Shown here: positions 3,777 to 63,143 of the stretch, in pieces | Numbering within the stretch: position 1 is the first letter of the stretch | How the letters are laid out: each line of letters begins with the position of its first letter | Origin: an uncultured Bacteroidales bacterium | GTDB lineage: Bacteria; Bacteroidota; Bacteroidia; Bacteroidales; JAIOZK01 | Assembly (NCBI GenBank): GCA_964550205.1 | Contig: CAZJYD010000009.1 | Span: forward strand, 1 to 63,143 | Direction: 5' to 3' | DNA length: 63,143 bases | Notes under the pieces: model-generated | What the model was told of the DNA's origin: nothing | The model's database searches: none | The model's input: the letters and a program-made list of their open reading frames with translations, nothing else | Program-made: the position numbers and the translations under genes

Positions 3777-4970
3777 TCATAAAATTTCCTGATAAAAATC
3801 AATTAATCGTTTTATAATTTTTTTATTGTTATGCTCTTCGTATATCAAATCATGTGCATTATTGCCTACTGATATAACGAAATCAGAGCTTTCAACACAT
3901 TTGCTGATCTCCTGTAAATATTCTTCTGCAGTTTCAGCAATTAAAATATTTTTATTATGTGTATAATTAATTCCTTCTGCTCCAATGCTCGTCGAAATAA
4001 CTGCTTTGCCAAGAGCCATTCCTTCGATGATTTTTATTCTTATTCCGCTTCCCGAAAATAAAGGAACGATCATAATTGCCTTAGAATTGATAAACTCATA
4101 TGCGTCATCCACTTCCCCCACAACTTGTAAATTGGGAATTTTTGAGTTTGTGAGCCAATCTGGCATTTCTCTTCCTGCAAGGTAGAATGAAAGAACAGGA
4201 TACTTTTTATGAACTTCCGGCCAAACATTATGTAAAAACCATCTGATACCTTCAATATTGGGGATCCAGTTCATAGCTCCTATGTGGAAAAGGGATGGGA
4301 ATTCATAGTCTTTTAATGGTTTAGGGAACTTATTGGTATCAATACCAAATGATATATCTTTTATTGGAGTTGAGGTATATTTTTGTAAAATCTCACCATC
4401 TCTTTTAGTAATAGTTGCTATGCCGTCAAATCTTTCAAGTGAAGATATTTCGAATTTCTTGAGTGTTTTTTGTAAATGGTTCAGATATAGTTTTTTTAGT
4501 GGATTTTTAGTTATCCGGGTTATTCTTTGCCATATTAAATGCTCTATATTATGCGCCCGCAGGATGATTTTGGCATCAGAGTGTTTTCTAATAACATCAA
4601 TATACGGAGTAATAAATAAAGTTTCAAACTGGATTATATCGAATTGGTTTTCCCTGAGAATCTTGACAAGTCGTTTTTTTAATGTTTTTGAAATAAAACG
4701 TTGTACATGATAAGATTTACCCGTAAATATATTCAAAAAAGCATCAATGGGTTTTATCGAGAGATCAATATATTCAAGCTCAATGTTGGTCTTTTTACGA
4801 TAGTTTTCAGGTATTTGATCAAAAGAAATGTAATACTTATTTGTATTAATGGCAAGAACCTTGAGTTTGCAATTTGTTTGCAATAGCCCTTCTATAATTG
4901 CATTCATGGCAATCGGACCTCCCTCTTTGGGAGGATAAGGTGATTTATTGCAAATCAGAAGAATGTTCAT
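3777..4970 (-). CDS. Glycosyltransferase family 4
   Basis: PYPPKEGG, HNIEH, SGSGIRIKIIEGMALG motifs; 4-bp overlap with upstream gene. Confidence 0.9.
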   Translation of the reverse strand: MNILLICNKSPYPPKEGGPIAMNAIIEGLLQTNCKLKVLAINTNKYYISFDQIPENYRKKTNIELEYIDLSIKPIDAFLNIFTGKSYHVQRFISKTLKKRLVKILRENQFDIIQFETLFITPYIDVIRKHSDAKIILRAHNIEHLIWQRITRITKNPLKKLYLNHLQKTLKKFEISSLERFDGIATITKRDGEILQKYTSTPIKDISFGIDTNKFPKPLKDYEFPSLFHIGAMNWIPNIEGIRWFLHNVWPEVHKKYPVLSFYLAGREMPDWLTNSKIPNLQVVGEVDDAYEFINSKAIMIVPLFSGSGIRIKIIEGMALGKAVISTSIGAEGINYTHNKNILIAETAEEYLQEISKCVESSDFVISVGNNAHDLIYEEHNNKKIIKRLIDFYQEIL

Positions 4971-6397
4971 TGTTTATTTGGCTTTTTAAGAATTTTATTT
5001 AAAAACTTAATCCATGAATCTGTATCCATCAGTGGTGAATCGGTTGTAGCTTTATAAGTTAAAAATATGCCAAGAGGTAATAATACCGCCGAAGAGATCC
5101 ACATACCGATATAAGGTTGTACTACATCTTCTTTTACATATTTTTCACCGGTTATTGATAATACATGAAATAATATAAAAAATATCGCTGACATTACTAC
5201 CGGTAGCCCTAATCCTCCTTTTCTGATAATTGCACCCAGAGGAGCTCCTATGAAAAACAAAACGAAACATGCAAACGACAGTGTAAATTTTTTGTGCCAT
5301 ACCACCTCATGTTTAAGAATAAGTTTCTTATCTGATTGCAAAGCGTCTTTATTATAGGTAATTGATTTTTTCAGGCTTTTAGCTGCATTAATAGCAAAAT
5401 CTAATATTCGTTTCTGATCGAAGGTTTTGAAGTTTTTAAGGAATTCACCCTTCATATCATTTATAGTGTCTTTTTTATTTGTTTTTATGGTATCCGATTG
5501 GGAATAGAACCTGTAATTGTTTTTGAATTTATCCCTGAACTTTTTTTGTTTATCTTCCAGTTTAGATCTAAGAGAATCTATTGATTTATTAAGCTGTTGT
5601 ACGTTAAGCATAGCATAATGATCTTTAAATAGCTCCTCATTTGTTCTGCTCAGTTCAAATGACTTAAGATCGAAACGGCGGATTTCTTCCCTGAAATATG
5701 TTCTCTCAAAAGGTTTTGTTTCCCTGTAGCCTCTTTGATCCACTTTGTCCTTATAATTATATCCATTATACAATGTAAAGATTATATATCTCCCATCTGC
5801 TGAGGATTCCATTTTACCTGATTCTGCTGATGTTACATCGATATTCCCCATTGACTCCTTATGGTTGTATATTAATACATCCTTAATATGTATTCCGTCT
5901 TTTTCTTTTTTACCGATACGTATAGTATAATCTTCAAGACCATGGTAAAAAATGCCTTCCTTAATATTGAAAGCAAGCTTTTTCCGTTTTATATCGTATA
6001 GCAATGATCTGAATTTCAAATTAGATACTGGAAGCACATTATTGGAAAAGTAAAATGCAAACATGCTTATGAGTATTGTTAAGATTATAAGCGGTCTCAT
6101 TATTTTCCAAAGTGATACTCCTGCAGCTTTCATTGCAACTAATTCATAGTGCTCTCCTAGGTTACCAATAGTCATTAGTGAAGACAGCAAAATTGCAAGT
6201 GGCAATGCCAGAGGAACGAAAGTTGCCGAGGCATAAAAAAGTAATTCTGCTATAAGGTACCATTGTAAGCCTTTGCCAACCAAGTCATCAACATATTTCC
6301 ACAGAAATTGCATATCAAGTATGAAAAGGGCGATAAAGAATGTCATCACCAAAGGCCCAAGATAAGATTGAAGTACCAGGATATATATTTTTTTCAC
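4967..6397 (-). CDS. LptF/LptG family LPS export permease
   Basis: MQFLWKYVDDLVGKG, GEHYELVAMKAAGVS, GAPLGAIIRKGG; GTG start at 6397 preferred because a TATATTTG promoter element (6416-6423) covers the track's TTG start. Confidence 0.9.
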   Translation of the reverse strand: MKKIYILVLQSYLGPLVMTFFIALFILDMQFLWKYVDDLVGKGLQWYLIAELLFYASATFVPLALPLAILLSSLMTIGNLGEHYELVAMKAAGVSLWKIMRPLIILTILISMFAFYFSNNVLPVSNLKFRSLLYDIKRKKLAFNIKEGIFYHGLEDYTIRIGKKEKDGIHIKDVLIYNHKESMGNIDVTSAESGKMESSADGRYIIFTLYNGYNYKDKVDQRGYRETKPFERTYFREEIRRFDLKSFELSRTNEELFKDHYAMLNVQQLNKSIDSLRSKLEDKQKKFRDKFKNNYRFYSQSDTIKTNKKDTINDMKGEFLKNFKTFDQKRILDFAINAAKSLKKSITYNKDALQSDKKLILKHEVVWHKKFTLSFACFVLFFIGAPLGAIIRKGGLGLPVVMSAIFFILFHVLSITGEKYVKEDVVQPYIGMWISSAVLLPLGIFLTYKATTDSPLMDTDSWIKFLNKILKKPNKQ

Positions 6398-57747: not shown

Positions 57748-60705
57748 ATGAAAAAATTATTTATACTGTTATTTATAGGCGGCTTTATTGTTTTGTTAGG
57801 CTGTTCAAGAGAGAAAACCCCTTATGATTATGTTGACCCATTTATCGGTACTGGCGGACACGGCCACACTTTTCCGGGGGCCACCATGCCTTTCGGAATG
57901 GTTCAGTTAAGTCCTGATACAAGAAAAGACAGCTGGGACGGTTGCTCAGGATACCATTATTCTGATAATACAATTATGGGATTCAGTCATACCCATCTTA
58001 GCGGAACAGGAGTGGGGGATTATGGCGACATACGCTTCATGCCCACTACGGGTGTGTTGAAACTGGATCCGGGAACGGCAGAAGATCCTCAATCTGGCTA
58101 CAGATCAAGGTTTAGTCATCGCGATGAAGATGCTTCTCCGGGATATTATTCGGTTGAGCTGGAAGATTATGATATTGATGTTGAACTCACTGCTACAAAG
58201 CGTTGTAGCTTTCATAAATATATTTTTCCAAAAACCAACAGCGCTCATGTGATTATTGATCTTGTTGAGGGGATTACATCGGATAAGATTGAATTTCTTG
58301 AGATACAGGTTTTAGACGATCAAACCTTCACAGGCATCAGAAAAACAGATGGATGGGCTGATGATCAGCGGATTTATTTTCATGCAGTTTTTTCTAAACC
58401 ATTTTATGATTACGGTATAACGAAGGGTAATAATATTTTTAAAAGCCTTGAAAAAGTATATAGCGATAACATAAAAGCATTTTTCAATTTCAAAACCGAA
58501 AAAAATGAGGAGTTATTGATTAAGGTTGGAATTTCTGCTGTCAGTGTTGAGGGGGCAAGAAAAAACCTGATGGCGGAGATACCAGGATGGAATTTTAGTA
58601 AAATCAGAAAAAATGCGAGGAGAACATGGGAAGAACAACTCAATAAAATTGAAGTTGTAGGAAGCAGGAAAGACAGAACTATTTTTTATACTGCCTTGTA
58701 CCATTGTTTTATAGCACCAAATTTATTCACAGATGTTGACGGGCGGTATCGTGGTCATGATGGTGAACACCATAAGGCTGAAGGTTTTAATATGTATACC
58801 GTTTTTTCTCTTTGGGATACTTTCCGTGCCGAACATCCTTTGTTGACATTAATTGAAAGAGAGCGTACCAAAAATTTTATCAAATCAATGTATGATATTT
58901 ATGAGAAGGGCGGATTGCTTCCGGTGTGGGAACTGGCTGGTAATGAAACCAATTGTATGATAGGCTACCATTCGGTTCCGGTTATAACTGATGCTTATAT
59001 TAAAGGCATCAGGGATTTCGTAGTCAGGGAAACATATGATGCCATGCGCAGAAGTGCTATTGATAATCAGTTCGGACTGAAATGGTACAAAAAGTACGGA
59101 TATATTCCATCCGACAAAGAAGGTGAATCAGTATCAAAAACTCTTGAATATGCTTATGATGATTGGTGCATTGCACAAATGGCCAGGGAGCTTGGAAGAG
59201 AGAATGAATATGAGAAGTACATTGAACGGGCACAGTACTACAAAAATTTGTTTGATAAGGAAACCGGTTTTATACGTGGCAAACGCAACGGAATGTTCAC
59301 TGAACCTTTTGATCCTTCCGAAGTGAACTTTATGCTAACCGAAGCTAATACATGGCAATACAACTTTTTTGTCCCGCAGGATATAAATGGTTTTATTGGA
59401 TTATACGATGGACCTGAAAACTTTACAAAGAAGCTTGATGAAATGTTCAGTGCAAAAGAATATCTTAGCGGGCGTCATCAGGTTGATATAACAGGTCTTA
59501 TCGGGCAATACGCCCATGGTAATGAACCCAGTCACCATATGGCATATTTGTATGATTATGCAGGCGAGCCATGGAAAGCTCAGCATTATGTTCACCGCAT
59601 TATTGAAGAGCATTATTCCGATAAACCTGATGGCTTAAGTGGCAATGAAGACTGTGGTCAGATGTCGGCATGGTATGTATTGAGCTCTTTGGGATTTTAT
59701 CCTGTTACTCCTGGTGATACTATTTATGCCATTGGTACACCCGTTTTTCAGGAAGCCGTAATCAATCTGGAAAACGGAAATGAATTTATAATTAAGGCTA
59801 CGAATGTTTCACCAGGTAATTATTATATACAATCAGCCAGATTGAACGGAGAAGAATACAATAAGTGTTATATATCACATCAGGATATTATGAAGGGCGG
59901 GGAATTGGTTTTCGATATGGGCTCTCAACCCAATAAAAAATGGGGAACAGGCGCCGGCAATATGCCTGTTTCTTTGATTGATGAACATTTAATAACACCT
60001 GTTCCCTTTTTTGATGCTCCATCTCATGCTTTTACAAAACAGATGCAAATTGAGATAAAAGACATACTTGATGATGTAAAAATATACTATACTCTTGATG
60101 GGCAGGAACCCGACAGGAATTCACATCTTTATAAAAAGCCTTTCACTATTGATAAAACAACCGTTATTAAAGCATTTGCCAAAAAGAAGAACATGAAGAG
60201 AAGCAAAACAGTGGAAGCTGAGTTCATTAAGATACCTGGAAACAGGGAGGTTTATCTGAATACGGAATACAGTACGCAATATACCGGAGGTGGTAAAATT
60301 GCATTAATTGACGGTTTAAGGGGAGGAAAAAATTTCAGGGCTGCAGGCTGGCAGGGATATCAAGGATCCGACCTTGATGCAATCATTGATCTGGGAAAAG
60401 TACAAAAAGTGAATAAAATAGCGGTTGGTTTTTTACAGGATCAGCGCTCGTGGATATTTATGCCTCCGGCGCTTGATTTTTATATTTCGGAAGATGGAAA
60501 GAACTACAGGCATATAGGAAAGCTAGAAAACTCAATTTCCCCTGAATACAAAGGTGTAATTATTGATGATTATGTTCTTGATGATATTAACCGCAGGGCG
60601 CGATATGTCAAGGTAAAAGCCAAAAATATCGGCAAAAATCCCGAATGGCACAACAGCCCCGGCAAAAAATCATGGTTATTTGTTGATGAGGTTATTGTTG
60701 AATAA
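57748..60705 (+). CDS. GH92 alpha-mannosidase lipoprotein with C-terminal Fn3-like and F5/8-type domains
   Basis: Lipobox LLGC; HTFPGATMPFGMVQLSPDT, SKTLEYAYDD, HGNEPSHH, GNEDCGQMSAW. Confidence 0.95.
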   Translation: MKKLFILLFIGGFIVLLGCSREKTPYDYVDPFIGTGGHGHTFPGATMPFGMVQLSPDTRKDSWDGCSGYHYSDNTIMGFSHTHLSGTGVGDYGDIRFMPTTGVLKLDPGTAEDPQSGYRSRFSHRDEDASPGYYSVELEDYDIDVELTATKRCSFHKYIFPKTNSAHVIIDLVEGITSDKIEFLEIQVLDDQTFTGIRKTDGWADDQRIYFHAVFSKPFYDYGITKGNNIFKSLEKVYSDNIKAFFNFKTEKNEELLIKVGISAVSVEGARKNLMAEIPGWNFSKIRKNARRTWEEQLNKIEVVGSRKDRTIFYTALYHCFIAPNLFTDVDGRYRGHDGEHHKAEGFNMYTVFSLWDTFRAEHPLLTLIERERTKNFIKSMYDIYEKGGLLPVWELAGNETNCMIGYHSVPVITDAYIKGIRDFVVRETYDAMRRSAIDNQFGLKWYKKYGYIPSDKEGESVSKTLEYAYDDWCIAQMARELGRENEYEKYIERAQYYKNLFDKETGFIRGKRNGMFTEPFDPSEVNFMLTEANTWQYNFFVPQDINGFIGLYDGPENFTKKLDEMFSAKEYLSGRHQVDITGLIGQYAHGNEPSHHMAYLYDYAGEPWKAQHYVHRIIEEHYSDKPDGLSGNEDCGQMSAWYVLSSLGFYPVTPGDTIYAIGTPVFQEAVINLENGNEFIIKATNVSPGNYYIQSARLNGEEYNKCYISHQDIMKGGELVFDMGSQPNKKWGTGAGNMPVSLIDEHLITPVPFFDAPSHAFTKQMQIEIKDILDDVKIYYTLDGQEPDRNSHLYKKPFTIDKTTVIKAFAKKKNMKRSKTVEAEFIKIPGNREVYLNTEYSTQYTGGGKIALIDGLRGGKNFRAAGWQGYQGSDLDAIIDLGKVQKVNKIAVGFLQDQRSWIFMPPALDFYISEDGKNYRHIGKLENSISPEYKGVIIDDYVLDDINRRARYVKVKAKNIGKNPEWHNSPGKKSWLFVDEVIVE

Positions 60706-60723
60706 GATTTCATTGTTTACCAT

Positions 60724-60840
60724 GTGAAACGCTTCGAAGAAGCTGTTTCACTGTGGTTCCATTGTTATACCTTCCGGATCCGCCGGTAGGCGGAGAAGGC
60801 AGGTTCAATTGCTCCATTGTTCGATTGTTTAATTGTTAGA
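60724..60840. repeat. Hairpins and ATTGTT-based octamer repeats downstream of GH92
   Basis: GTGAAAC-GCTTC/GAAGC-T-GTTTCAC hairpin; TCCGCC/GGCGGA hairpin; ccattgtt/cgattgtt/taattgtt units. Confidence 0.55.
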
Positions 60841-61096
60841 CCAAACCCATGTTCATATCGCATTCAATTTACTTTGGGTGTTTTTCAATGACAGGTGATT
60901 TCCTTTTATATGGAGGAGTACCTTTTTTCAAATTGATAAATATGTTGTAAATTGCATGGATTGCTTCATTTCATTTTTGTATAAATTGCTCGTATACGTT
61001 TATAGAATCAAATTCTTTTCTTCGATTTTTTTATAAGGATGCTTTATGTTGTTTGTTCATTATGATTTATCCTTCTATTAAAACGTTTTTTTATTT

Positions 61097-61187
61097 TTAT
61101 AACGCCAGCATCACCGGCGGGAGACACTGCAGAGCGACGATAGGAGCGGCGCAGTGTCTCCCGTCCGCGTGCATGCACTCGTTAGCA
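61097..61187 (-). mobile_element. attC: attC integron cassette recombination site (91 bp)
   Basis: Minus strand R'' TGCTAAC ... R' GTTATAA; perfect 13-bp IR (61118-61130/61151-61163) extended with three unpaired bases on one arm; upstream ORF stop TAA lies inside R''. Confidence 0.92.
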
Positions 61188-62048
61188 TTTTCGTTCGTGT
61201 CCCTGAATCAGGTCGAAAGCCCAGTGGACTGCTTGCGGGTATTCACCGCAGTCAAGCACGAATTCCTGTCCTCGTGCCACTGCCCTAAGCTCTGAACGTG
61301 CCCCAACTTTACCCCATCGGCTAGGATCGGAATGGTACGTCAGCGGTGTTCGCTCCTCGCCGGGATGAAACCAGCCCGGGAGTTCCCAAGTGCTGGTGTT
61401 GTTTGAGTTTGGTGCAGTCAACTGCAAGTCACGCGCGAACTGTGGGAATACTCCCGCACCTGGCAGATTGCCTCCCGCCGCGTGGGCGGTTTCAAGGTAG
61501 CGCCGCGCCAAGTAGACCGTATTGTTGCGGTCATTTCCCCGATGGAAGTGCGGATGGTACTCCGCCCAAGGGTATCCAATGGGCGTTGCTGTGCCGAGCG
61601 ACACAATCTCGCCGACTTGGAACCACCCCCACATCACATGACATGGCTGGCTGTTGGCGGCCCACCGATAGATGCCCTTCCTTCTCTCCACGCAACGAAA
61701 GAGACCAAAGAAGAGAAAGAGGTCACCAACTCCTACGTCACTTTTCCGGAGGTGACCTTGTGCTTGGCCGGTCTGTCCGAAGATTGGTCGCCATCCTCGT
61801 TGGCGGGGAAGGCTGTCCCGGACGATGTCGGGATCGATATGGGCACGATACTTCGAGGGAATACGTCCACCGGTCAGTTCCTCTACAAGCGGGCCAATCG
61901 AGCTGCCCTCGTACTGTATCTCCCCGTATGTGACCAACGACTTCTTGTCTGGAATGGGCAAAGAAACCATCCGCCCATCTGGGAAGATCGGGCTTGGCAC
62001 CCCACCCGCTGATGAGTCGAATCCTTTCCTGCTAAGAATGAGCTTCAT
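61182..62048 (-). CDS. Nucleotide modification associated domain 3 (Nmad3) protein
   Basis: MKLILSRKGFDSSAGGVPSPIFPDG, AHIDPD, FGQ..AQGHL, FLFFGLF, HPH, RGQEFV; ATGA overlap favours start 62048. Confidence 0.82.
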   Translation of the reverse strand: MKLILSRKGFDSSAGGVPSPIFPDGRMVSLPIPDKKSLVTYGEIQYEGSSIGPLVEELTGGRIPSKYRAHIDPDIVRDSLPRQRGWRPIFGQTGQAQGHLRKSDVGVGDLFLFFGLFRCVERRKGIYRWAANSQPCHVMWGWFQVGEIVSLGTATPIGYPWAEYHPHFHRGNDRNNTVYLARRYLETAHAAGGNLPGAGVFPQFARDLQLTAPNSNNTSTWELPGWFHPGEERTPLTYHSDPSRWGKVGARSELRAVARGQEFVLDCGEYPQAVHWAFDLIQGHERKC

Positions 62049-62650
62049 GCCTTTTGTTTCCATGACATATCACTGTACGGCCATTTCGTTGGGGGTGCGC
62101 TGACTCCTTGAGGATATGATGAGATGAACTCCAAGAAGTCGCCAATGGTCTCTCGGGAGAACCGGTTCTTGTGCGCCCGGCCCACCTTCAGTTCTTCCAA
62201 GTCCGGCGGCAACTCCGGCCCTGAAGCCCCAAAATAGTAGAACTTCGTAGCTATGAGGACATTCACTCCTCCCAAGTCATGTGCCTTAGTCCCGGGATTC
62301 TCGTCCTCATCGTTCGAGTGCATGGACCGCAACTGCTGGAAATCCCCATTTGGTAGCGGTTTGTAGATATTGTCCCCTGCCTTCCAGACCACTTCTCCCC
62401 TGCCGTAATCCGGTATCTTGTTGGCAAAACGTGCGTCGCTGTAGTAACTGGCGTAGTCGAGAATCTCATCCACCTCCATGGCAAAGACTACGCGATTCCC
62501 ACTGGCTTTCGGGCTGAGCCCGACGATCCAGTCCCCAACCTCTGCCGTCCGTCGGATTGCCGGCTTGCAATCGGCAAGCGTACAACATCCCCAGAAAGGA
62601 TTGGGAGAGAACCCGGTGTCATGTGTCACGATGTAGGAATAGAGCTTCAT
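62045..62650 (-). CDS. Nucleotide modification associated domain 2 (Nmad2) protein
   Basis: MKLYSYIVTHDTGFSPNPFWGCCTLADCKPAIRR, GDNIY; GGAAGGA SD suitably spaced for ATG 62650 (alternative 62659). Confidence 0.85.
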   Translation of the reverse strand: MKLYSYIVTHDTGFSPNPFWGCCTLADCKPAIRRTAEVGDWIVGLSPKASGNRVVFAMEVDEILDYASYYSDARFANKIPDYGRGEVVWKAGDNIYKPLPNGDFQQLRSMHSNDEDENPGTKAHDLGGVNVLIATKFYYFGASGPELPPDLEELKVGRAHKNRFSRETIGDFLEFISSYPQGVSAPPTKWPYSDMSWKQKA

Positions 62651-62669
62651 GGGTGGCATGTCCTTCCGC

Positions 62670-62700
62670 TGCTAACATATTATTAAGCTGCCAATATACG
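62670..62700 (-). mobile_element. attI: attI site (core G|TTAGCA, crossover between 62676 and 62675)
   Basis: GTT core at the exact AT-rich/GC-rich junction, ~170 bp from the divergent intI start; upstream extent approximate. Confidence 0.8.
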
Positions 62701-62846
62701 TATAATAAACATAATATGCAAGTAAAAAAGTAATCCATATAATACGCTTATTTGTAACAAAAAACTGCAATTTGCGGTATAATATGCTATAATTGTATTA
62801 TTATACGTAAATTTCTAATTATGCGATTTAAATAATTATTGTTATT

Positions 62847-63143
62847 ATGGCAAAAAAATCAAAATTATTAGATCAGGTTCGCCGGGTCATTCGTACGAAG
62901 CATTTCAGATATAGTACAGAAAAGAGTTATGTTGACTGGATATACAGATACATTGTATTTCATGATAAAAAACATCCTGAAGAAATGGGAAAAAAGGAAG
63001 TTTCTGAATTCCTTACTTTTCTTGCTGTTGATAGAAAAGTATCAGCATCTACACAAAACCAGGCATTGAATGCTTTGGTTTTTTTGTATAAAAATGTCCT
63101 GGATAAACAATTAGGTAAATTATCATTTACTTATGCGAAAGTT
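62847..63143 (+). CDS. intI: Integron integrase, N-terminal 99 aa (truncated by window end; absent from ORF track)
   Basis: MAKKSKLLDQVRRVIRTKHFRYSTEKSYVDWIYRYIVFHDKKHPEEMGKKEVSEFLTFLAVDRKVSASTQNQALNALVFLYKNVL matches the IntI N-terminal domain; divergent from attI. Confidence 0.92.
   Translation, partial: MAKKSKLLDQVRRVIRTKHFRYSTEKSYVDWIYRYIVFHDKKHPEEMGKKEVSEFLTFLAVDRKVSASTQNQALNALVFLYKNVLDKQLGKLSFTYAKV

Follow-up and report, generated by a model that had tools for sequence, protein, structure and literature searches.

The window analysed here is the full 63,143-nucleotide (nt) contig CAZJYD010000009.1 of an uncultured Bacteroidales bacterium (assembly GCA_964550205.1). It represents an entire contig (C9) of an assembly of 3.18 Mb in 127 contigs, with a genomic GC content of 0.349, i.e., the host is an AT-rich bacterium. 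At the right-hand end of this contig lies a group of features with the parts and order of one edge of an integron, namely the 5' end of an integron integrase gene (intI), an attachment site (attI) beside it, and a single GC-rich gene cassette closed by an attC site. From left to right these are:

61097..61187, minus strand: attC site of 91 nt, with the R'' box TGCTAAC at 61187..61181 and the R' box GTTATAA at 61103..61097.
61103..62675, minus strand: gene cassette of 1573 base pairs (bp), GC about 0.57, delimited by GC windows and by homology edges at the crossover and at R''.
61182..62048, minus strand: Nmad3 gene (PF18754, E 8.9e-82), with its likely start at the 6th codon of the open reading frame (ORF) 61182..62063.
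62045..62650, minus strand: Nmad2 gene (PF18753, E 2e-60), with its likely start at the 4th codon of the ORF 62045..62659.
62661..62667, minus strand: Shine-Dalgarno-like GGAAGGA, at a distance of 1 nt from the first ATG and of 10 nt from the likelier start at 62650.
62677..62752, minus strand: repeated attI module of 76 bp adjoining the crossover, with copies on another contig (C59).
62677..62846, no strand assigned: attI and divergent promoter region, 170 bp, AT-rich, with the crossover G at 62676.
62691..62721, minus strand: promoter-like motif of the Bacteroidota type facing the cassette, with TTG at 62721..62719, a 20-nt spacer and TATATTGG at 62698..62691.
62847..63143, plus strand: first 99 codons of intI (PF13495, TIGR02249), the ORF being open at the contig end.

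The initial annotation, which was made from the letters of this DNA, had read the stretch as an intI 5' end with host-like AT content beside a divergently oriented attI, followed by a clearly GC-rich cassette with sharp edges at two GTT crossover points and an intact attC, and each of these elements is borne out by the present analysis. The intI fragment has an integron-type N-terminus and a GC content of 0.316 as against 0.349 for the genome; the attI is present at 62677-62846; the cassette has a GC content of about 57% versus 34.9% for the host; and the crossovers are located at G62676|T62675 and G61103|T61102, with the cassette edges falling exactly at both G|TT positions. On the minus strand the cassette starts with G|TTAGCAGCGGAAGGAC-ATG and ends with ...GCTGGCG|TTATAAAAAT. 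Its attC (61097-61187) is of the classical GC-rich kind, having R'' and R' cores, paired L'' and L' boxes, spacers and extrahelical bases. When folded, the TAAC pairs with the GTTA, a 3-nt unpaired spacer follows on each side, and a long stem leads to a small apical loop, with three single-base bulges on the R''-L'' arm at 61164, 61168 and 61172. None of 200 shuffles folded as well (energy -27.1 kcal/mol, z -5.06). Additionally, this is the best of 9566 TAAC...GTTA-bounded stretches (49-139 nt) folded genome-wide and the only one with this architecture, the other 11 hits of the genome-wide scan being perfect hairpins or lying in unrelated contexts. Further, the R'' sequence TGCTAAC exactly complements G+TTAGCA, and it is TTAGCA that stands at the cassette start 1.5 kb away, a pattern that is produced by a circular cassette inserting at G|TT.

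The composition of the cassette sets it apart from its surroundings. Each 200-bp window across 61100-62699 has a GC content between 0.525 and 0.595, as opposed to 0.24-0.41 in the flanks on both sides, and only two of the 6036 windows of 1.5 kb in the genome reach 0.50, the cassette window being the highest at 0.539. The two cassette ORFs have GC contents of 0.54 and 0.567 and third-position values (GC3) of 0.65 and 0.60, whereas the 1301 long host ORFs average 0.358 (standard deviation 0.036, maximum 0.493; GC3 0.306) and none of them reaches 0.50. The proposal of the initial annotation that this is a foreign cassette from a distant donor is thereby upheld, the composition being unameliorated and the closest genome-level relatives lying in metagenome-assembled genomes (MAGs) titled as Pirellulales, Desulfonatronospira and Desulfohalobiaceae. 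The outcome that it had named as speaking against such a donor, closest cassette homologues in Bacteroidota of similar GC content, was not seen: a 401-genome sample of the phylum contains Nmad3 relatives in six other genomes, the best only 58% identical and none of the six labelled as the same class or order. The same annotation had pointed to GGAAGGA as a signal that Bacteroidota largely do not use. The motif is present at 62667..62661, and GGAG, GAGG or AGGA precede only 7% of the long host ORFs; Bacteroidetes mRNAs without classical Shine-Dalgarno sequences are described in PMC7366714. In the Desulfonatronospira copy the whole 5' leader of the cassette, GGAAGGA included, is identical, indicating that the motif and the leader came with the cassette. 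The foreign and compositionally unameliorated nature of the cassette is thus supported.

The cassette is also found as a unit elsewhere. A scan of genomes for relatives, which took one genome per species, recovered four loci encoding Nmad3 relatives, in MAGs titled as Pirellulales (L015; 81% identical in amino acids (aa)), Desulfohalobiaceae (L016; 74%), Desulfocapsaceae (59%) and Desulfonatronospira (L018; 95% in the best segment). At the DNA level, blastn identity over about 1500 nt of cassette amounts to 86.3% for L015, 85.7% for L018 and 82.3% for L016, and all three alignments run from the G|TTAGC crossover to the R'' box and no further. Both L015 and L018 have the terminal part of a further attC ahead of the cassette, which therefore sits inside an array there. 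Contigs of public sequencing runs behave likewise. A contig of run X3 (labelled subsurface metagenome) matches the window at 61103-62676 only (120 differences), its two flanks parting from the window at precisely these points. The cassette variant of the window occurs without differences in runs X1 and X2 (labelled microbial mat metagenome), along with a second variant, seen within window positions 61205-62676, that is about 89% identical (77 differences in 692) and diverges exactly at 62676. The sequence upstream of this second variant is identical to the array of the Pirellulales MAG (L015), which implies that the cassette is present, in different versions, in two members of one community. 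In sum, Desulfobacterota and Pirellulales MAGs and other metagenome contigs contain this cassette with the same edges, at a DNA identity of 82-92%; it is mobile as a discrete unit and has the same ends in other arrays. Its presence with identical ends in genomes of three phyla, i.e., Bacteroidota and MAGs titled as Desulfobacterota and Planctomycetota taxa, is direct evidence for a cassette pool shared across very distant bacteria. As a separate observation on one of these copies, five extra bases (CATGT) at about 2090-2290 of L018 split Nmad3 into two ORFs, reflecting either a frameshift or a sequencing error.

On the other side of the crossover, the attI core, ...ATATTGGCAG NNN AATAATATG|TTAG, is separated by 173-178 nt from the intI ATG both in the window and in two metagenomic integrons, L062 and L064 (spacing by eye), whose integrases are 73% and 68% identical to the present one over 99 residues. 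In the window it reads ...TATATTGGCAG-CTT-AATAATATG|TTAGCA, 173 nt from the intI start, and in L062 and L064 ...GATATTGGCAG-NNN-AATAATATG|TTAGGC, about 176-178 nt from it. Upon alignment the three sequences diverge after GTTA, and the attI of L064 leads to a cassette of its own that ends in a 55-nt canonical attC. This arrangement is that expected of an attI adjoining intI, with insertion apparently at G|TT. The sequence of the site is presumably unrelated to that of attI1. Within the site and facing the cassette lies the promoter-like motif: as read from the sequence, TATATTGG fits five of the six specified positions of the Bacteroidota -7 motif TAnnTTTG, and the -33 TTG is also present, the promoter consensus of the phylum being TTTG / TAnnTTTG as quoted in PMC7366714. 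It might represent the counterpart of the cassette promoter Pc. A scan for sigma-70 promoters and terminators gave counts close to those of shuffled sequences; sigma-70 is the wrong promoter type for this phylum.

The intI fragment matches PF13495 (E 8e-32) and positions 1-86 of the TIGR02249 "integron integrase" model (E 1.7e-29), and thus includes the integron-type N-terminal SAM-like domain; there is no stop within the 99 assembled codons. Longer relatives of the fragment number 2921 proteins at E<=0.001 among 3065 candidates, and the best of them (P0007, 320 aa) is 81% identical and scores 411.8 bits on TIGR02249, the cut-off of which is 265 bits. All nine full-length relatives that were scanned (319-328 aa) pass this model in one unbroken stretch (388.6-432.9 bits), their matches spanning model positions 1-313 or more, so that these closest full-length relatives, nine of nine, cover the IntI-specific region. 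The Xer-like recombinases of the same genome, on the other hand, match TIGR02249 only at positions 6-180 and 242-314 and skip 181-241; the part corresponding to the IntI-specific insertion is hence absent from their match. Because the nine relatives match the model unbroken and the Xer-like recombinases do not, the integrase is, as judged from these profiles, a classical integron integrase by descent. Its closest genome-borne relatives, 78% and 73% identical, are encoded by two genomes (G564 and G778) of another family (f81) of the same order. The half-spacer upstream of intI (62749-62846) is 79% identical to the region upstream of intI in G778, where the contig ends exactly at the point at which the repeated attI module begins. 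Integrases above the TIGR02249 cut-off are found in eight of 401 sampled genomes of the same order and in 113 of the 401 genomes of the phylum sample; of those matching in the latter, one is labelled as the same class and none as the same order.

With regard to the cargo, both Pfam matches cover the whole domain and score well above the curated cut-offs (204.2 bits versus 26.1 for Nmad2 and 274.9 versus 27 for Nmad3). Nmad2 probably starts at 62650, since most of the listed homologues are about 200-202 aa long, and Nmad3 probably starts at 62048, since many homologues, including the four best, have 288 aa. The latter start gives an ATGA overlap between the Nmad3 start and the Nmad2 stop, and at its other end the Nmad3 gene has its stop codon inside the R'' box of the attC. 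Nmad3 has 6372 relatives at E 0.001 or better. The two domains occur together in a fused protein (P0183, 498 aa) and, going by the names in the source, as adjacent locus tags in a Syntrophales MAG. AlphaFold models of Nmad2 and Nmad3 have predicted local distance difference test (pLDDT) values of 76.8 and 88.3. Foldseek searches of the PDB with these models gave only weak matches (best E 2e-3 and 4e-2), and VIA-align yielded 18 rows at Z>=5 for Nmad2 (Z 5.0-7.2) and 16 for Nmad3 (Z 5.1-7.1), all of which are domains of the YTH, EVE, ASCH, THYN1, McrB-N, VcaM4I or DrmA N-terminal type. A PUA-like (EVE/YTH/ASCH) fold is accordingly probable for the models of both proteins, though not proven because Z values below 8 count as middling for this tool. 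A sequence-profile search of the PDB returned no match for Nmad2, while for Nmad3 the only matches, to an unrelated kinase, were weak (E 0.08 or higher), and hhalign detected no similarity between the Nmad2 and Nmad3 profiles (probability 0.3). Prediction of a complex of the two proteins scored 0.00 in two runs, which speaks neither for nor against binding. Among the papers searched, none dealt with the function of the Nmad2-Nmad3 pair, and no anti-phage activity of the pair is known. Nmad2 itself (PF18753, 220 aa) is listed in DefensePredictor Table S8 (PMC13092281) as one of the five proteins of DS-4 (NTTI), a validated and replicated anti-phage unit. The cargo would most likely act as a small module that senses or processes modified nucleotides or nucleic acids, and its role might lie in phage defence. 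The pair is widespread and unstudied; since it travels in mobile cassettes and Nmad2 also forms part of DS-4, it may reasonably be considered as a small module for defence or nucleic-acid modification.

Taken together, the locus probably represents one edge of a genuine integron in an AT-rich chromosome, which has captured a 1573-bp cassette from a pool that crosses phyla. Under this proposal intI would be transcribed away from the attI site, and the circular 1573-bp cassette would have been inserted at the attI G|TT by attI x attC recombination, an event that would leave the attC of the cassette at the far end. The cassette would have been drawn from the pool shared with Desulfobacterota and Planctomycetota, retaining its donor-type composition and Shine-Dalgarno-like leader. 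Once in place, it could be transcribed from the host-type promoter-like motif inside attI, and would give rise to two translationally coupled proteins, Nmad2 and Nmad3. In this scheme the parts and their edges, the foreign composition of the cassette and its mobility as a unit are direct observations; the activity of the integrase and of the promoter, the place and time of capture and the function of the cargo are inferred.

Several observations weigh against this proposal. The IntI-specific patch and the catalytic R-H-R-Y residues fall beyond assembled codon 99, and a search of the assembly with TIGR02249 for the remainder of intI gave only Xer-type or other recombinases (on contigs C41, C110, C4 and C20) and nothing that continues C9. 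What the sequence bears out is accordingly an integron junction, with an intI start, attI, one cassette and attC, and not the "complete" integron of the initial annotation. The promoter-like motif is a match in sequence only, at five of the six specified -7 positions; the structural matches of both cargo models all have Z values below 8; and PADLOC and NCBIfam return no match for either cargo protein. As for the junctions, no listed Logan contig of runs X1 and X2 bridges the left one: one record from these runs ends at 61104, and another, an exact match, starts at 61100 and has 56 of its 355 letters unaligned to the window. The right junction is crossed by X1 and X2 contigs with only 26 letters on the attI side. 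Moreover, the X1 and X2 data are contigs and not reads, and the assembly may itself have been derived from X1 or X2. Joints of an empty attI or of a circular cassette are absent from the contigs listed for runs X1, X2, X3 and X5, a result that is uninformative as these, too, are contigs and not reads.

The unbridged left junction and the record with unaligned letters, along with the two cassette variants in X1 and X2, one of which lies in a GC-rich array, could be taken as signs of an assembly chimera, in which a GC-rich cassette of another community member was spliced into a Bacteroidales contig. Such an artefact is, however, very improbable, because the positions of the joins coincide with the two G|TT recombination crossovers and the sequence on either side of the cassette is host-like. 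In addition, two independent integrons (L062 and L064) share the attI side of the right junction, equally far from intI. Further, zero-difference records cross 62676 in both X1 and X2, and the 4-5 shared letters GTTA(T) are too few for an assembler to join contigs. Finally, the cassette of the window differs by about 11% from the second variant, which indicates that the copy in the window is a separate molecule present in the samples.

The integron reading preferred here leaves a separate question as to where the capture took place, on which the chromosomal setting bears. To the left of the cassette lie the following features:

57748..60705, plus strand: GH92 glycoside hydrolase gene (Pfam), a conserved chromosomal anchor.
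60706..61102, no strand assigned: AT-rich flank from the GH92 stop codon to the cassette, with a hairpin repeat at about 60709-60840.

Orthologues of the GH92 gene are present in all five congeners examined at 62-69% identity, and in four of the five a DHO_dh-like gene directly follows, in convergent orientation and 140-504 nt away. The orthologue of this DHO_dh-like gene in the present genome lies on another contig, at C59:5457..6536 (71-74% by tblastx). The end of C9 (window 60706-63143), a gap and C59:1-5456 thus appear to form one island of at least 7.9 kb between the GH92 and DHO_dh-like genes, containing the cassette, attI, intI, an AbiEii fragment, an aminotransferase, a membrane protein and a DUF6036 nucleotidyltransferase. 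The suggestion of the initial annotation that the integrase is a long-time resident of this chromosome is not supported by this comparison at the level of the genus: neither the integrase nor the attI was found in any of the five congeners, and the genes that are direct neighbours in four of the five are separated by the island here. It should be kept in mind for any estimate of residence time that these congeners are distant, as the identity of their GH92 orthologues indicates. The host-like AT content is equally well explained by origin in another Bacteroidales family, that of the closest IntI sequences (78% and 73%, in f81).

These findings raise the alternative that the capture happened in another lineage, and that the whole island, with intI, attI and the cassette already in place, was transferred from another Bacteroidales, in which case the integrase here may be inactive or truncated. 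In its favour, searches found the integrase and the attI module in none of the five congeners, and the island is positioned between otherwise neighbouring genes. Further, family f81 accounts for the closest IntI sequences as well as for all other genomes in which the attI module was found, and the intI orthologue of G778 has an in-frame TAA. On the other side, the cassette has not been ameliorated toward AT, which implies a short stay in any AT-rich host, and the 99 assembled intI codons are free of stops. Likewise, the high summed depth at 62996-63077, where other contigs also have loose ends, would fit a conserved part of intI that is common to many members of the community, and this would explain the break of the contig without damage to the gene. 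Transfer of a preassembled island is a possible but rather unlikely course of events.

A further set of observations concerns the 76-bp module that adjoins the crossover on the attI side, additional copies of which are found on C59 at 2885-2947 (97%), 3959-4028 and 4517-4596, these three being strong, and at 5236-5290, which is weak. An nhmmer profile of the module finds it in this genome only at the C9 attI and on C59 (E below 0.1). Outside this genome, G564 has seven matches to the module and G778 has four. It is therefore present in both genomes with the closest IntI sequences, as opposed to none of the other eight tested, i.e., three same-order genomes with more distant integrases and the five congeners. 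In all six module copies that were aligned, the similarity ends at GTTA. Copies with no integrase beside them include those on C59, L051, L053 and L055 in G564, and L054, L056 and L057 in G778, and each of these faces a gene. The orphan copy L051 leads into a TPR gene, behind which lies a 127-nt canonical attC whose R'' box GACTAAC fits the cassette start GTTAGGT in five of seven positions. After the orphan copy L057 come HicA/HicB-like genes (by eye) and a weak attC-like hairpin with an energy of -6.6 kcal/mol and a z of about -1. Copy L055 precedes an RRM RNA-binding protein gene and may be a promoter copy only, since the hairpin downstream of the RRM gene still has an R' of its own.

One way to explain such repetition is that 62677-62752 is merely a common promoter module, and that its adjacency to the crossover is coincidental, which would leave the true attI undefined. 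The module does carry the promoter-like motif, its copies precede ordinary-looking genes such as the RRM gene of G564, and neither folding nor the genome-wide scan finds a canonical attC behind the C59 copies. Nevertheless, a coincidence of this kind is improbable given that the similarity stops at GTTA in six of six aligned copies, that the same module core adjoins intI in L062 and L064, that in this genome the module is confined to the C9 attI and C59, that its distribution follows the closest IntI sequences (two of two genomes versus none of eight others), and that the L051 copy leads to a gene with a canonical attC of fitting R''. A further possibility presents itself, which we regard as rather less than probable: this lineage of integrases may use a portable attI module of about 75-130 bp with its own Bacteroidota-type outward promoter, present in several copies per genome, mostly far from intI, of which some orphans (L051 clearly, L057 weakly) would have captured attC cassettes, so that a single integrase would serve, in trans, an integron spread over multiple attI sites. 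This notion is founded on a small number of cases. Were it true, each docking site would give foreign cassettes host-type transcription. Two reports may bear on the orphan attI copies, one dealing with cassettes of a delta-attI type (PMC12901181) and one with insertion outside att sites (10.1101/2022.09.11.507474).

Some other repeats and hairpins were noted around the locus and on other contigs. The hairpin repeat in the AT-rich flank (about 60709-60840) belongs to a dispersed family of short GC-rich hairpin repeats, with copies on C59 (3019-3209 and 4091-4281), C15, C30, C22, C69, C26, C89 and C7. On C59 a block of about 325 bp, consisting of the hairpin repeat and the attI module, is duplicated around a membrane-protein gene. 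The hairpins at about 60728-60831 and the C59 repeats were rejected as attC candidates, having no AAC...GTT arrangement and copies dispersed over many contigs; folding and the genome-wide attC scan identified no attC in the flank 60706..61102, and Rfam gave no match on 60500-63143 at E up to 0.1. A long imperfect hairpin of 126 nt at C96 1471-1596 lies between genes for a Y-family polymerase-like and an error-prone DnaE-type polymerase-like protein (assigned by eye only), and was rejected as an attC from this gene context. On C110 (1-1000 and 2150-2450), a tyrosine recombinase gene is cut by the contig start and has a cluster of GGCGTAGCG...CGCTACGCC hairpin repeats nearby, which resemble hairpins at C59 4376-4449.

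In comparison with known systems, the locus shares with the classical integrons, both the mobile class 1 type and the sedentary chromosomal type of Vibrio cholerae, an intI divergent from the cassette, an attI beside intI, a G|TT crossover, a compact promoterless cassette, an attC with R''/L''/L'/R' boxes and bulged bases, and a stop codon inside R''. Unlike them, it resides in an AT-rich host of the Bacteroidales type, has a single cassette and an integrase assembled only to codon 99, and carries an outward promoter-like motif that follows the Bacteroidota -33/-7 pattern rather than that of sigma-70. Within the phylum, the account of IntegronFinder 2.0 (PMC9024848), in its passage on Bacteroidetes, mentions earlier finds of only In0 elements and then one complete integron in Salinibacter ruber. 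The Bacteroidetes/Chlorobi integrons treated there likewise combine an integron integrase with attC cassettes; the present locus differs in lying in the window's own order, in which, as noted, eight of 401 genomes carry an integrase. Ghaly et al. (PMC9668308) also list Bacteroidota among the phyla with integrons. Integrons of this kind are thus already known in Bacteroidota, and the locus described here is a clear, fairly ordinary further example.

As regards the cargo, the anti-phage integron cassettes described by Darracq et al. (10.1101/2024.07.02.601686) resemble the present one in packing a small multi-gene unit into a single cassette, but differ in that PADLOC gives no match for Nmad2-Nmad3 here. 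DS-4, as tabulated in PMC13092281, additionally has a TS-like protein, a dNMP kinase, a 5-hmdU kinase-like and a TIR/NDT-like protein, and no Nmad3; its five-gene make-up is not found in the cassette, which holds only Nmad2 and Nmad3. With respect to expression, the promoter appears to be of host type and supplied by the docking site, while the ribosome-binding leader retained by the cassette is of donor type. According to PMC7366714, the way in which promoters are read and translation is started in Bacteroidota differs from that of the likely donors; this makes the locus a natural test of whether capture by an integron alone suffices for the expression of a cassette in spite of this difference.

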